Source: Anaerolineales bacterium (lineage in GTDB: Bacteria > Chloroflexota > Anaerolineae > Anaerolineales > UBA11579). Taken from it: a stretch of 54,508 nt of DNA. Where the stretch lies: assembly GCA_046716985.1 (NCBI GenBank), contig JBKJWG010000315.1:1-54508 (forward strand), read 5' to 3'. A model generated the notes under the pieces. The model saw only the letters and a program-made list of their open reading frames with translations. It did not search any database and was not told the origin of the DNA. A program made the position numbers and the translations under genes. Of the stretch, positions 37,071 through 41,918 are shown one piece after another (the stretch's first letter is position 1; every line of letters begins with the position of its first letter).

Positions 37071-38078
37071 ATGGACTGGAAAAAACAAACTGTCTTAGTT
37101 ACCGGCGGCACCGGTTCGTTCGGCAAAGCATGCATTCGCATTCTGCTAAACGAATTCAAGCCCGAAAAGGTGATCGTCTTCAGCCGCGATGAGTTGAAAC
37201 AGCACGAGATGCGTGAAGCGGGTTTCACTGAGCCCAACTTGCGCTACTTCATCGGTGACGTGCGCGACAAAGAACGTTTGCAGCGCGCTATGGATGGGGT
37301 CGATGTCGTCATCCACGCCGCCGCGCTTAAGCAGGTGCCTGCTTGCGAATACAACCCAATGGAAGCGATCAAGACCAATATCCTTGGCACCGCCAACGTG
37401 ATCGAAGCTGCCCTGGAAACCGGCGTAAGCAAGGTGCTGGCGCTCAGCACTGATAAAGCTGTCAGCCCGGTCAATCTCTACGGAGCTACCAAGCTGGCCG
37501 CCGAGAAGCTAACTGTACAGAGCAATTCCTATTCCGGCGAGCGGCCGGCACGCTTTAGCTGCGTGCGCTACGGCAACGTCTTGGGCAGCCGCGGCAGCGT
37601 CGTGCCCATCTTTATCCGCCAGCGTGAGAACGGCAAACTCAGCATCACTGACGAGCGCATGACCCGTTTCTGGCTCTCGCTCGACCAGGGCGTGCGTTTT
37701 GTTTTGCATTGCATTGAAGTCATGCAGGGCGGTGAAGTCTTCGTGCCCAAACTGCCAAGCACCACAGTCGCTGACTTGGCCAAGGCCATCGCGCCCAACG
37801 CCAAGCTGGATGTGGTCGGCATCCGCCCCGGCGAAAAGCTGCACGAAGTGCTTATCTCCGAAGACGAAGCTCGCACAGCAGTGGAGCTGGAAGATATGTA
37901 CGTCATCCAGCCCGCGCAAGGACCCTGGTTCGTGCGCTCGTGGGACGACAAAGGCAAACCATTGCCCGAAGGTTTTCACTACGCTAGCAACGAGAATCCC
38001 GAAGTGCTGACCCCTGCGCAGATCCAAAAGATCGTCGCGCCGATCGAGGCAGACCTGAAGGCAGGCAAGCTGTCGTGA
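37071..38078 (+). CDS. pseB: UDP-GlcNAc 4,6-dehydratase of the PseB/FlaA1/CapE(FnlA) family
   Basis: The RBS AAGGTCGGAGA lies upstream. 'VLVTGGTGSFGKACI', 'FSRDELKQHEM', 'FIGDVRDKERL', 'IHAAALKQVPACEYNPMEAIKTNILGT' and 'YGATKLAAEKL' are near-collinear with H. pylori FlaA1 as I recall it. Confidence 0.75.
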   Translation: MDWKKQTVLVTGGTGSFGKACIRILLNEFKPEKVIVFSRDELKQHEMREAGFTEPNLRYFIGDVRDKERLQRAMDGVDVVIHAAALKQVPACEYNPMEAIKTNILGTANVIEAALETGVSKVLALSTDKAVSPVNLYGATKLAAEKLTVQSNSYSGERPARFSCVRYGNVLGSRGSVVPIFIRQRENGKLSITDERMTRFWLSLDQGVRFVLHCIEVMQGGEVFVPKLPSTTVADLAKAIAPNAKLDVVGIRPGEKLHEVLISEDEARTAVELEDMYVIQPAQGPWFVRSWDDKGKPLPEGFHYASNENPEVLTPAQIQKIVAPIEADLKAGKLS

Positions 38079-39007
38079 CGCGTATCCTGATCACCGGCGC
38101 TAGCGGCCTGCTCGGCGTCAACCTGGCGCTGGAAGCTGCTAAACGCTACGAAGTCGTCGGTCTGCTGCACGAACATGCGTTGCGGGACCCCGGCTTCGAA
38201 ACTCTGCAAGCCGATCTGCTGCAGCCGGATGAGATCGCACGCGAGCTCGATGAAACGCAGCCCGATTGGGTGATTAATTGCGCTGCGCTAGCTGACCTCG
38301 ACGCGTGCGAGCAGCAGCCACAATTAGCGCAACAGCTGAACGCCGAGCTGCCCGGCCGCCTGGCAACTGAAACCGCCAAACGTGGCTTGCGCTTCCTGCA
38401 CGTTTCCACGGACGCGGTTTACGACGGCAGCAAGGGCGATTACCGCGAAGAGGACGCGCCCGCGCCGATTAGCGTGTATGGACGTACCAAGCGGCTTGGC
38501 GAATTGGCCGTGCGCGGTGCTAACCTCAAGGCGGTGATCGTGCGCCCGAATCTATTTGGCTGGAGCGTGAGCGGTGAACGCAGCCTGGCTGAGTTCTTTT
38601 ATAACAACCTTACAGCCGGTAAATCCGTACGTGGTTTTACTGATCGGCTTTTCTGCCCGTTACAAGTTACCGATTTGGCTGCCATCATGCTGGAATTACT
38701 TGAGAAAGATCTGAACGGGCATTATCACGTAGTTAGCTCGGATCACATCAGTAAATATGATTTCGGTGCAGCACTTGCGAAACGCTTTGATTTGGATGCA
38801 AATTTGATCAAGCCCGCCAGCGCCGCCTCGTCTGGCGCGCCACGCTCGCCCAACTTGACCTTGAACACTGCCAAGGTGACCAAGGTTCTGGGCCGCCGCA
38901 TGCCTACGGTCGCGGCTGGCATCGAGCGACTTTATAAACAGCACCGATCCGGCTATCGCGCAAAACTATTGGCAATGGTCGCCGCAGCGGAGCCGATGAA
39001 GGCCTAG
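38075..39007 (+). CDS. RmlD-substrate-binding-domain NAD(P)H sugar 4-reductase
   Basis: GTGA overlap. 'ILITGASGLLGVNL', 'PDWVINCAALADLDACE', 'FLHVSTDAVYDG' and 'YGRTKRLGE' match the dTDP-4-dehydrorhamnose reductase family pattern. Confidence 0.75.
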   Translation: MTRILITGASGLLGVNLALEAAKRYEVVGLLHEHALRDPGFETLQADLLQPDEIARELDETQPDWVINCAALADLDACEQQPQLAQQLNAELPGRLATETAKRGLRFLHVSTDAVYDGSKGDYREEDAPAPISVYGRTKRLGELAVRGANLKAVIVRPNLFGWSVSGERSLAEFFYNNLTAGKSVRGFTDRLFCPLQVTDLAAIMLELLEKDLNGHYHVVSSDHISKYDFGAALAKRFDLDANLIKPASAASSGAPRSPNLTLNTAKVTKVLGRRMPTVAAGIERLYKQHRSGYRAKLLAMVAAAEPMKA

Positions 39008-39009
39008 CG

Positions 39010-40074: not shown

Positions 40075-40089
40075 CTGGACCCGCGTTGA

Positions 40090-41160
40090 ATGAAAATCTT
40101 GTATTTCAGTAAACAGTATGGGCCGCATGACCACCGCTTTCTGTCCGCCATTGTCGAGGGTGGCCACCAAGCCTTTTTTCTGCGGCTTGATCCGAATGCA
40201 AGGAATCAAGAGAAGCGTCCATTCCCAAATGGCGTCAAGATCGAGAACGGAACTATCCAAGACGTGATTTCAAAAATAAAGCCTGATCTTGTGCATGCTG
40301 GTCCATTAACTACCGGCAGCTACCTTGCGGCCAAGACGGGCTTCCATCCGCTGGTGCAAATGTCTTGGGGTTCCGATATTTTGTTTGAAGCCAAAAACAG
40401 CACCCTTGCGAGGCGCCGCGTGCGGACTGCACTGCGCTCGGCCGATGTGCTGGTCGCTGATTGCGCCGCAGTCGGCGATGCGGCGGTTAAGCTGGGCTTC
40501 CCACGTAAAAATATCGTCACTTTTCCTTGGGGAGTTGATTTGAAACGTTTCAATCCCCGTGGCGGTGACGACGGTTTGCGCAAGCGACTCGGGTGGCAAA
40601 ACAACTTTGTGTTATTGCACGTACGTAGTTGGGAGCCGCTTTACGGCGCCGAAACAGTGCTACGTGTTTTTCTGCGTGTGGCGGCCAAGCAGCCAAACCT
40701 TCGGCTGCTGATGCCAGGCACTGGCAGCAAGGCTAAACTCTTTAAGGAGATAGTCAAGAAATCAGCGCTCAGTGATCGTGTCCATTTTTCGGGGCCGACC
40801 GCGCAAAAAAATTTGCCGGCCTATTACCGCACTGCTGATCTCTATGTCAGCGCGTCCAAAAGTGATGGCACTTCGGTCTCGCTCATGGAAGCGCTAGCCA
40901 GCGGCTTGCCCGCACTGGTTTCAGATATTCCCGGCAATCGCGAGTGGGTGCGACCTGGTAAAGAAGGCTGGCTGTTTGCTTTGGATGACGTGCACGACTT
41001 GGCAGATAAGATTGGTGCCGCAATGGCCAGACCAAATGTATTGCGAAAAATATCCAAGCAAGCCCGGGCTACAGCTATTAAGCGAGCTGATTGGACGCAC
41101 AACAAGAAGGAGTTGTTGAGCGCGTATCAATTGGCGCTGAAAAAGGCCAAGACCTCATGA
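40090..41160 (+). CDS. GT4-family (GT-B) glycosyltransferase
   Basis: Signature 'SKSDGTSVSLMEALASGLPALVSDIPGNREWVRPGKEGWLF'. Confidence 0.8.
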   Translation: MKILYFSKQYGPHDHRFLSAIVEGGHQAFFLRLDPNARNQEKRPFPNGVKIENGTIQDVISKIKPDLVHAGPLTTGSYLAAKTGFHPLVQMSWGSDILFEAKNSTLARRRVRTALRSADVLVADCAAVGDAAVKLGFPRKNIVTFPWGVDLKRFNPRGGDDGLRKRLGWQNNFVLLHVRSWEPLYGAETVLRVFLRVAAKQPNLRLLMPGTGSKAKLFKEIVKKSALSDRVHFSGPTAQKNLPAYYRTADLYVSASKSDGTSVSLMEALASGLPALVSDIPGNREWVRPGKEGWLFALDDVHDLADKIGAAMARPNVLRKISKQARATAIKRADWTHNKKELLSAYQLALKKAKTS

Positions 41161-41918
41161 CCGGTCCCCGCGTTGTTGCCATCATTCAGGCGCGTATGGC
41201 TTCCAGCCGCCTGCCGGGCAAGGTCCTCGCCGACTTGGGCGGTCAGCCTGTCCTGGCATGGGTGGTGCGCCGCGCTCAGCGCGCCAAAGGCATAGACCAG
41301 GTCGTAGTTGCTACCTCGGTAGCCGCTGGCGACGATGTGATCGAGGCATTCTGCAAAGAACAAGGTTATGCCTGCACACGCGGCAATCTGCATGACGTGC
41401 TCGATCGTTACGTCGAAGCCGCTCGTCAGTTCGATGCGCAGGTCGTCATTCGCCTCACCGGCGACTGCCCGTTGATCGATCCCGAAATGTTGGCTGATAA
41501 CCTCAAAACGTTTTTGCAAGCTGAACCGCCGCTTGATTTTGCGGCTAACCGTTTGCCAAACGAACGCACAATTCCCATCGGCCTGGATGCTGAGTTCTGC
41601 ACCAAGGCCGCGCTGGAGATTGCCTGGCGCGAAGCTACACAGCCGTACCAGCGCGAGCACGTGATGCCATTCTTCTATGAGCATCCCGAACGCTTTCGTA
41701 TCCTGCACATCAAGCACTCGCCGGATTACGGCCATCTGCGCTGGGCCGTTGATACGCCTGAAGATTTAGAGTTGCTTCGCCAGGTCGTTTCCCATTTCAA
41801 AGACGATACTTTTTCTTGGAAAGACGTGCTTACACTTTTCGAAAAAGAACCGCACTTAGCACAAATCAACGCCAATGTGCAGCACAAGAGTCATTACGAC
41901 GTAGATACCCGCCGATGA
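41157..41918 (+). CDS. SpsF/PseF-type cytidylyltransferase (CTP_transf_3)
   Basis: The track start at 41091 lies inside the upstream gene. The in-frame ATG at 41157 forms an ATGA overlap. 'VVAIIQARMASSRLPGKVL', 'IRLTGDCPLIDP' and 'REHVMPFFYEHPERF'. Confidence 0.8.
   Translation: MTGPRVVAIIQARMASSRLPGKVLADLGGQPVLAWVVRRAQRAKGIDQVVVATSVAAGDDVIEAFCKEQGYACTRGNLHDVLDRYVEAARQFDAQVVIRLTGDCPLIDPEMLADNLKTFLQAEPPLDFAANRLPNERTIPIGLDAEFCTKAALEIAWREATQPYQREHVMPFFYEHPERFRILHIKHSPDYGHLRWAVDTPEDLELLRQVVSHFKDDTFSWKDVLTLFEKEPHLAQINANVQHKSHYDVDTRR

Follow-up and report, generated by a model that had tools for sequence, protein, structure and literature searches.

Which sugar is made by a gene cassette that opens like the pseudaminic acid pathway and then departs from it? 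The question is raised by contig JBKJWG010000315.1 of an Anaerolineales bacterium (assembly GCA_046716985.1; Chloroflexota), and the window analysed here is this entire 54.5-kb contig (54,508 nucleotides), which belongs to a metagenome-assembled genome of 1.93 Mb. Nonulosonic acids are surface sugars that shape immune and phage recognition, and the bacterial routes to them known to us (Neu, Pse, Leg and their epimers) all use defined enzyme sets; the pathway to CMP-pseudaminic acid (CMP, cytidine monophosphate) consists of PseB, PseC, PseH, PseG, PseI and PseF. At positions 37071-41918 of the plus strand, the open reading frames and profile scans reveal five tightly coupled genes, encoding a PseB-type dehydratase, an RmlD-like short-chain dehydrogenase/reductase (SDR), a NeuB-family synthase, a family 4 glycosyltransferase-fold protein (GT4) and a CTP_transf_3 cytidylyltransferase. 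Based on the gene content and on comparisons to related loci in other phyla, we propose that this cassette probably makes a CMP-activated 5-acetamido-3,5,9-trideoxy-non-2-ulosonic acid, i.e. a 9-deoxy relative of pseudaminic acid with one nitrogen and a 7-hydroxyl. The predicted sugar is of a known, rare class (the trideoxy fusaminic type) that is without gene assignment in the literature searched, and the route to it would be that to pseudaminic acid in a new form.

The reading frames and their order agree with those given in an initial annotation of this DNA, as does the translational coupling of the reductase to the dehydratase, with start and stop overlapping in a GTGA at 38075. Junctions overlap or nearly touch throughout the cassette, with ATGA overlaps also at 41157 and 41915. 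The first gene (37071-38078) encodes a PseB-type inverting 4,6-dehydratase/5-epimerase of UDP-GlcNAc (uridine diphosphate N-acetylglucosamine), which scores 485 bits on the PseB equivalog TIGR03589 against a cut-off of 407.75, compared to 251 versus 730 on FnlA (TIGR04130) and 67 versus 475 on LegB. Its closest solved relative in a PDB search is Helicobacter pylori FlaA1 (2gn4, 375 bits), with CapE/FnlA at about 236 bits. An FnlA/CapE identity was considered for this enzyme and is ruled out by the hidden Markov model and PDB scores. The parallel to the FnlA/WbvR system drawn in the initial annotation is weaker than suggested there, since this enzyme is of the true PseB type and not FnlA. The FnlA/WbjB and WbvR routes to L-FucNAc, L-RhaNAc and L-QuiNAc do share with the window a Polysacc_synt_2 4,6-dehydratase/5-epimerase followed by an RmlD-family 4-reductase; however, no 2-epimerase was found in the window, and its two enzymes are tied to genes for a NeuB-family synthase and a cytidylyltransferase.

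The second gene (38075-39007, plus strand) encodes the proposed C4 ketoreductase for the PseB product. The protein matches RmlD_sub_bind (PF04321, 201 bits) and retains the SDR motifs GxxGxxG, S/T-D and YxxxK, but remains below the RmlD equivalog (TIGR01214, 186 bits versus a cut-off of 224.05). RmlD-family enzymes are nucleotide-sugar 4-ketoreductases. The synthase (39010-40074, plus strand; PF03102 219 bits, SAF 24 bits) is likewise below both relevant equivalogs, NeuB (TIGR03569, 248.9 versus 399.65 bits) and PseI (TIGR03586, 240.9 versus 340.25 bits). It nevertheless retains K49, Q51, K130, S133, Y187, H219, E238, H240, D251 and R318, which do not vary among the NeuB, PseI and cassette clades of the alignment and which we take, from the N. 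meningitidis NeuB structure, to be catalytic or metal-binding. The last cassette gene encodes the proposed CMP-activating enzyme (41157-41918, plus strand; PF02348, 130 bits). It had been described as SpsF/PseF-type, of which the SpsF-like part stands, whereas the PseF model is failed (TIGR03584, 33.8 versus 205.7 bits), leaving a KdsB/SpsF-like enzyme. Its start, previously placed at 41091, is most likely at 41157, because the ATGA there overlaps the GT4 stop; orthologues are 252-253 residues long.

To which synthases is this enzyme related? A search of 1.8 billion cluster representatives returned about 45 clusters above 200 bits, followed by a plateau at 170-200 bits that corresponds to the general NeuB family. 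In a maximum-likelihood tree of 108 rows, which held five PseI and five NeuB references chosen for passing the curated cut-offs and no LegI reference, the window synthase falls in a distinct clade outside all PseI and NeuB references, so that the clustering with PseI raised earlier as a point to check is not seen. Support by the Shimodaira-Hasegawa-like approximate likelihood ratio test is 99 for this clade at 37 rows, or 100 at 43 rows; the five PseI references form a clade of their own (100), as do the five NeuB references (99). Members of the window clade include enzymes of two other Anaerolineales, of two Fusobacterium strains (F. nucleatum ATCC 25586 and oral taxon 370) and one from a metagenome. 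PseI itself exceeds its cut-off in only 5 of 301 Chloroflexota genomes.

The remaining genes of the canonical pathway are not found next to the cassette. Pfam scans of all larger reading frames in the window detected no acetyltransferase, PseG-type (Glyco_tran_28_C) or Epimerase_2 domain, which agrees with the lack of acetyltransferase and UDP-sugar hydrolase noted initially. The DegT-family aminotransferase at 9311-10426 (plus strand; PF01041, 380 bits) is the single DegT protein of the window, as had been stated, and lies 27 kb upstream, outside the cassette, with 282 bits on the PseC model against a cut-off of 423.5; the cupin said to adjoin it could not be confirmed, as the Pfam scan of 8889-9314 gave no hit. 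Throughout the window's genome, which is 74% complete, no protein exceeds the PseC cut-off (TIGR03588; the best of four DegT-like genes reaches the same 282 bits), PseG (TIGR03590) has no match, the best PseH score (TIGR03585) is 56.5 versus 93.1 bits on another contig, and the sole NeuC-like match, again on another contig, has 91 versus 236 bits. A NeuC-type enzyme above the cut-off is also missing from Fusobacterium sp. oral taxon 370.

Because the window's own genome is incomplete, 61 genomes of the same order were sampled, with a completeness of 90% or more for 57. The window synthase has an orthologue (55-89% identity) in 37 of the 61. PseG exceeds its cut-off in three and PseC in the same three, none of which carries the window-type synthase; in four genomes of the same genus (92-96% complete) the synthase is present, and PseC and PseG were not found. 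Co-conservation of PseC and PseG with the module, another possibility raised at the outset, is therefore not observed, the two being mutually exclusive across the 61 genomes. The sampled Anaerolineales with canonical PseC and PseG are exactly G334, G349 and G362 in our numbering, and since these lack the window-type synthase, the gene distribution suggests that the canonical and the window-type route replace each other. Of 20 same-order loci fetched around the synthase, 17 have PseB and the RmlD-like gene beside it, within a recurrent block of the order Wzm-Wzt-KpsS/C-like-(methyltransferase)-PseB-reductase-synthase-GT4-cytidylyltransferase-unknown-GT2. As the same two genes accompany the synthase also in two other phyla, the arrangement is not due to chance.

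One of these phyla is represented by Fusobacterium. Among 22 Fusobacterium species genomes, reached by a 16S probe pattern, a close homologue of the window synthase (53% identity, 390 bits) occurs in a single one, that of oral taxon 370, while the others have an ordinary NeuB (30-34% identical to the window synthase, 452-472 bits on the NeuB model) or none. Via the SDR gene adjoining the oral taxon 370 cassette, the same cassette was found in F. nucleatum ATCC 25586 (AE009951.2, CP028101.1), inside the O-antigen locus at about 173-194 kb of AE009951.2. The locus reads PglF-like dehydratase, Bac_transf, SDR, GT2 and EpsG-type polymerase, and continues with PseB, an aldo-keto reductase (AKR), SDR, cytidylyltransferase, RmlD-like reductase, NeuB-like synthase, GNAT and Wzx; none of the genes called in these 20 kb encodes an aminotransferase. 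Model scores mirror those of the window, with PseB over its cut-off (521 bits), the synthase below both of its cut-offs (281 and 232) and the reductase below (130). Identities to the window proteins are 53% for PseB, 52% for the synthase and 29% for the reductase. The latter is homologous to the window protein and closer to it than to true RmlD: the window reductase reaches 141-146 bits against those of the Fusobacterium cassettes and 85-90 against three bona fide RmlDs, and cassette reductases reach 100-146 bits among themselves, compared to 49-94 against bona fide RmlDs, including the RmlD of the same Fusobacterium genome. Both loci have a CTP_transf_3 enzyme, and they differ in that Fusobacterium uses Wzx/Wzy and has no GT4, whereas the window has Wzm/Wzt and GT4. 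We define a fusaminic-type cassette by a PseB above its cut-off, an RmlD-like reductase and a NeuB-like synthase of one clade that are below theirs, and no aminotransferase; the window cassette is of this type.

The chemistry of the Fusobacterium polysaccharide gives meaning to this gene set. ATCC 25586 is a strain of interest in work on colorectal cancer and on Siglec-7 binding. In PMC13014188 and PMC7371886, which cite Vinogradov et al. 2017, the repeat of its O-antigen is reported as [4-beta-Non5Am-4-alpha-L-6dAltNAc3PCho-3-beta-D-QuiNAc], where Non5Am is 5-acetimidoylamino-3,5,9-trideoxy-L-glycero-L-gluco-non-2-ulosonic acid. By our comparison of configurations, this L-glycero-L-gluco sugar differs from the pseudaminic pattern only at C4, the new stereocentre. 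Pseudaminic acid (L-glycero-L-manno) derives from a 6-deoxy-L-altro hexose, so that a 6-deoxy-L-AltNAc (2-acetamido-2,6-dideoxy-L-altrose) precursor would give C5-C8 of the L-glycero-L-gluco sugar, and with this match the gene content would account for both unusual sugars of the ATCC 25586 O-antigen. The initial annotation had inferred PseB action, C4 reduction and condensation with phosphoenolpyruvate (PEP) to a 5-acylamino-3,5,9-trideoxy nonulosonic acid with a 7-hydroxyl, and this is the best-supported reading; its alternative, in which the enzyme pair makes a separate 6-deoxy-HexNAc residue, is compatible with it in that the F. nucleatum hexose is at once a residue and a plausible precursor. 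A literature search (subscription journals not covered) found no paper that assigns genes to a trideoxy nonulosonic acid or describes a PseB/RmlD-like/NeuB cassette.

Further settings of the cassette point to the nature of its end product. In Lysinibacillus (L. sphaericus, L. fusiformis and L. varians), it is located within a flagellin glycosylation island (locus L115, GCA_000801965.1 JSZM01000012.1 48789-61871) of the order flagellin, Maf (MptE-like), DUF8042, PseB, cytidylyltransferase, RmlD-like reductase, synthase, GNAT, methyltransferase, GT, FlaG and FliD, with identities to the window of 62% for PseB, 41% for the cytidylyltransferase, 30% for the reductase and 49% for the synthase. Maf enzymes transfer nonulosonic acids to flagellin, which argues that the cassette yields a CMP-nonulosonate, and not merely a 6-deoxy-hexosamine. 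A metagenome locus (L071) likewise encodes PseB, cytidylyltransferase, reductase and synthase, without GT4. The synthase clade is not uniform, however, because a TARA scaffold (L116) with a synthase of the same clade and PseB has no RmlD-like reductase and carries a CTP_transf_3::Aminotran_3 fusion; judged by its genes, it is a different variant of the pathway. For three further representatives of the clade (P0166, P0171 and P0175), the available flanks were too short to reveal a gene context.

We propose the following route for the window cassette. PseB would convert UDP-GlcNAc to UDP-2-acetamido-2,6-dideoxy-beta-L-arabino-hex-4-ulose, a chemistry taken from established members of the family to which the enzyme belongs. 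The RmlD-like SDR would then reduce the C4 keto group to yield UDP-6-deoxy-L-AltNAc or its C4 epimer, in place of amination by PseC and acetylation by PseH. Next, UDP would be removed from the 6-deoxy hexose, for which the Anaerolineales-specific GT4 is no more than a candidate, and the synthase would join the free hexose to PEP, giving an L-glycero-L-manno/gluco pattern at C5-C8. The sugar would be activated by the CTP_transf_3 enzyme and subsequently added by a KpsS/C-like or a BFO_1060-like GT-B protein to a glycan exported by Wzm/Wzt. In common with the CMP-pseudaminic acid pathway of Helicobacter pylori and Campylobacter jejuni, the route has a first enzyme that passes the PseB equivalog cut-off, and a NeuB-family synthase would join PEP to a 6-deoxy-L-hexose made from UDP-GlcNAc prior to CMP activation. 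It differs in that the RmlD-like reductase coupled to PseB takes the place of PseC, PseH and PseG, that the synthase does not belong to the PseI clade nor the cytidylyltransferase to PseF, and that the expected product bears a 7-hydroxyl, not a 7-NHAc group.

Several observations weigh against this proposal and lend some substance to other explanations. The genome is only 74% complete and the synthase tree lacks LegI; the RmlD-like proteins share only 29-32% identity across phyla; and the cytidylyltransferases of separate cassettes are of different subtypes and not all orthologous, that of the window being 37% identical to the enzyme of oral taxon 370. In the CP028101.1 assembly of ATCC 25586, the cytidylyltransferase is a 591-residue fusion protein that begins with a weak NeuB-like domain (47 bits; L058 10911-12686), and this strain may have a further synthase or amination genes outside the locus. 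The Fusobacterium cassette also has AKR, SDR and GNAT genes that are absent from the window cassette, and the sugars made may therefore have different configurations or N-acyl groups. Moreover, a PseG/NeuC-type UDP-sugar hydrolase is not recognisable in any version of the cassette, which leaves one required step unexplained. This last point would be understood if two unrelated products were made, with PseB and the reductase supplying UDP-6-deoxy-L-AltNAc or an isomer as a donor, e.g. for the GT4 that lies inside the Anaerolineales cassette, and the synthase using another aldose such as ManNAc (N-acetylmannosamine) or a hexose phosphate; 6-deoxy-L-AltNAc is itself a residue of the ATCC 25586 O-antigen according to PMC13014188, and a second ulosonic-acid module begins at the window end. 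We nevertheless hold such a division to be unlikely, since the synthase clade travels with PseB and an RmlD-like protein in three phyla and in differing glycan settings, neither the window's genome nor oral taxon 370 has a NeuC-type enzyme above the cut-off, and the ATCC 25586 sugar is 9-deoxy with a configuration that fits a 6-deoxy-L-altro hexose, which ManNAc or mannose cannot yield.

The extra enzymes also bear on whether the product is a different ulosonic acid altogether, with the reductase acting after the condensation or at another position, or with further epimerisation or deoxygenation, so that no 7-hydroxy-9-deoxy nonulosonate would result. The reductase subfamily is uncharacterised and fast-diverging, additional oxidoreductases are encoded around the cassette (two SDRs at 30486-32489 and a GFO/IDH/MocA protein at 46259-47251 in the window, AKR and SDR in Fusobacterium), and the TARA scaffold does without the reductase and has the aminotransferase fusion. 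Yet RmlD-family proteins are 4-ketoreductases and the simplest reading of the gene set fits both unusual ATCC 25586 sugars, which makes this outcome, in our estimate, distinctly improbable. Even smaller is the chance that an ordinary 5,7-diamino sugar of the pseudaminic type is made by scattered genes, i.e. by a distal DegT protein such as that at 9311-10426 and an acetyltransferase, with the RmlD-like protein serving another sugar. A PseB above the equivalog cut-off, four DegT-like genes in an incomplete genome, and GNAT and Antibiotic_NAT genes a few kb past the position of the window end in a same-genus genome would be compatible with it. Against this stand the missing PseG and the lack of a DegT protein at the PseC cut-off in the window's genome and in all 37 synthase-carrying genomes of the order, a synthase that neither falls in the PseI clade nor reaches the PseI cut-off, the coupling of the reductase to pseB, and the ATCC 25586 locus without an aminotransferase, whose sugar has one nitrogen. 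Hence, the one-nitrogen, 7-hydroxy nonulosonic acid remains the reading that we favour.

How would the hexose be released from UDP in the favoured route? All nonulosonate routes known to us require a hexose freed from its nucleotide. The GT4 (40090-41160, plus strand; Pfam Glycos_transf_1, 104 bits) adjoins the synthase in 18 of the 20 same-order loci, and blastp found no homologue of it in the Fusobacterium, Lysinibacillus or metagenome cassettes; by these comparisons it is specific to the Anaerolineales versions. Among proteins of solved structure it is closest to BshA and MshA, two enzymes that use UDP-GlcNAc and small acceptors, and it is a candidate only, either for UDP-sugar release or as the transferase of a 6-deoxy-HexNAc. 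A blastp comparison of all GT-B-like and unknown proteins revealed no accessory protein common to the Anaerolineales, Fusobacterium, Lysinibacillus, TARA and metagenome cassettes. The gene following the cytidylyltransferase with an ATGA overlap (41915-42823, plus strand; 302 residues, no Pfam hit) has an orthologue in 18 of 22 Anaerolineales loci (the 20 sampled same-order loci together with L007 and L008), with invariant N92-x-D94 and H205-Q-x-H208 motifs and a distribution in the Atlas that is mostly within Chloroflexota. Its AlphaFold model (mean predicted local distance difference test score of 92) matches K4CP, TarP and SpsA in Foldseek at E values of about 1e-8. This protein was considered as the missing hydrolase and dropped, because the predicted fold is that of a GT-A glycosyltransferase.

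A bolder form of the proposal is that a four-gene core of PseB, the RmlD-like reductase, the clade-specific NeuB-like synthase and the cytidylyltransferase constitutes the complete genetic basis of 7-hydroxy-9-deoxy nonulosonic acids in the Fusobacterium O-antigen, in Lysinibacillus flagellin and in the exported glycan of most Anaerolineales, and that it works without a PseG/NeuC homologue, with UDP released by a core enzyme or, in Anaerolineales, by the BshA-like GT4 recruited as a hydrolase. We regard this as speculative and on balance doubtful; if true, UDP release by either enzyme would be a new solution to nucleotide removal in nonulosonate synthesis. The favoured route, if correct, would by itself expose UDP removal as its unsolved step and explain how ATCC 25586 makes two of the three sugars in its O-antigen. 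It would also predict an undescribed flagellin glycan in cultivable Lysinibacillus and imply that many Anaerolineales (as judged from the 37 of 61 genomes) display the sugar on a glycan exported by an ATP-binding cassette (ABC) transporter. For annotation, a PseB with a coupled RmlD-like reductase and a sub-threshold NeuB should then not be labelled as a pathway to pseudaminic or sialic acid.

The genes upstream of the cassette are in line with such an export. A glycan ABC exporter formed by a Wzm permease and a Wzt ATPase with a Wzt_C domain (32486-34636, plus strand; PF01061, PF00005, PF14524) is conserved at this side, and a KpsS/KpsC-like Capsule_synth protein (34558-36222, plus strand; PF05159, 34 bits), placed between wzt and the cassette in almost every locus sampled, is a candidate for transfer of the CMP-sugar onto the exported chain. 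Directly 5' of pseB, a methyltransferase dependent on S-adenosylmethionine (36203-37057, plus strand; PF08241) is encoded, which most of the sampled loci have, though some lack it. The second candidate nonulosonate transferase is a BFO_1060/Glyphos_transf-like GT-B protein downstream (43716-45239, plus strand; NF046086 39.5 bits, PF04464 23 bits); PDB sequence searches with this and the KpsS/C-like protein gave no matches. In oral taxon 370, a protein with the same weak BFO_1060-type match adjoins pseB, and the F. nucleatum gene of no known function beside pseB has a Glyphos_transf/KpsS-like GT-B fold in an Atlas comparison and is somewhat more likely to be a transferase. The arrangement resembles that of Klebsiella O12 and Raoultella terrigena, where Wzm-Wzt is combined with the WbbB terminator for beta-Kdo (3-deoxy-D-manno-oct-2-ulosonic acid), in its ABC exporter with a Wzt C-terminal domain, the adjoining KpsS/C-like enzyme and the neighbouring genes for a CMP-activated ulosonic acid. 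It differs in that the window sugar would be a nine-carbon amino sugar of a Chloroflexota host, with a presumed capping role.

Two details concern the Fusobacterium gene models. For the fused cytidylyltransferase, the 2002 assembly AE009951.2 (L056) calls only the C-terminal part of 259 residues, and the oral taxon 370 enzyme has 281 residues without the extra NeuB-like domain. For PseB of oral taxon 370 (L055, about 13058-14061), one open frame covers only the C-terminal half (155 residues) while tblastn aligns further upstream, which could be a frameshift or a draft assembly error.

At its 3' end, the window runs into an SDR gene and a second CTP_transf_3 gene (52890-54508, plus strand, the latter at 53696-54508 and cut by the contig end), which form the start of a second ulosonic-acid module; the SDR is 34% identical to that of the Fusobacterium cassette. 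In the same-genus genome G353 (L114, C1:1232000-1248000), the counterpart continues with a second cytidylyltransferase fused to a HAD phosphatase and a 290-residue, SAF-less NeuB paralogue, then an aminoacyl-tRNA synthetase-like protein, GNAT, Antibiotic_NAT, M28/DUF4910, GT2, a third cytidylyltransferase and a 2-hydroxyacid dehydrogenase. Acetyltransferases are thus present in this G353 module, though PseC and PseG were not found in it. A second, separate ulosonic-acid module hence probably lies just past the window end, and the fusion of its cytidylyltransferase to a HAD phosphatase suggests that it would follow a sugar-phosphate (Kdn-like) route. The only large minus-strand genes of the locus, at 47248-50478, encode two adjacent membrane proteins of 531 and 543 residues, which are paralogues of about 52% identity with no Pfam hit.

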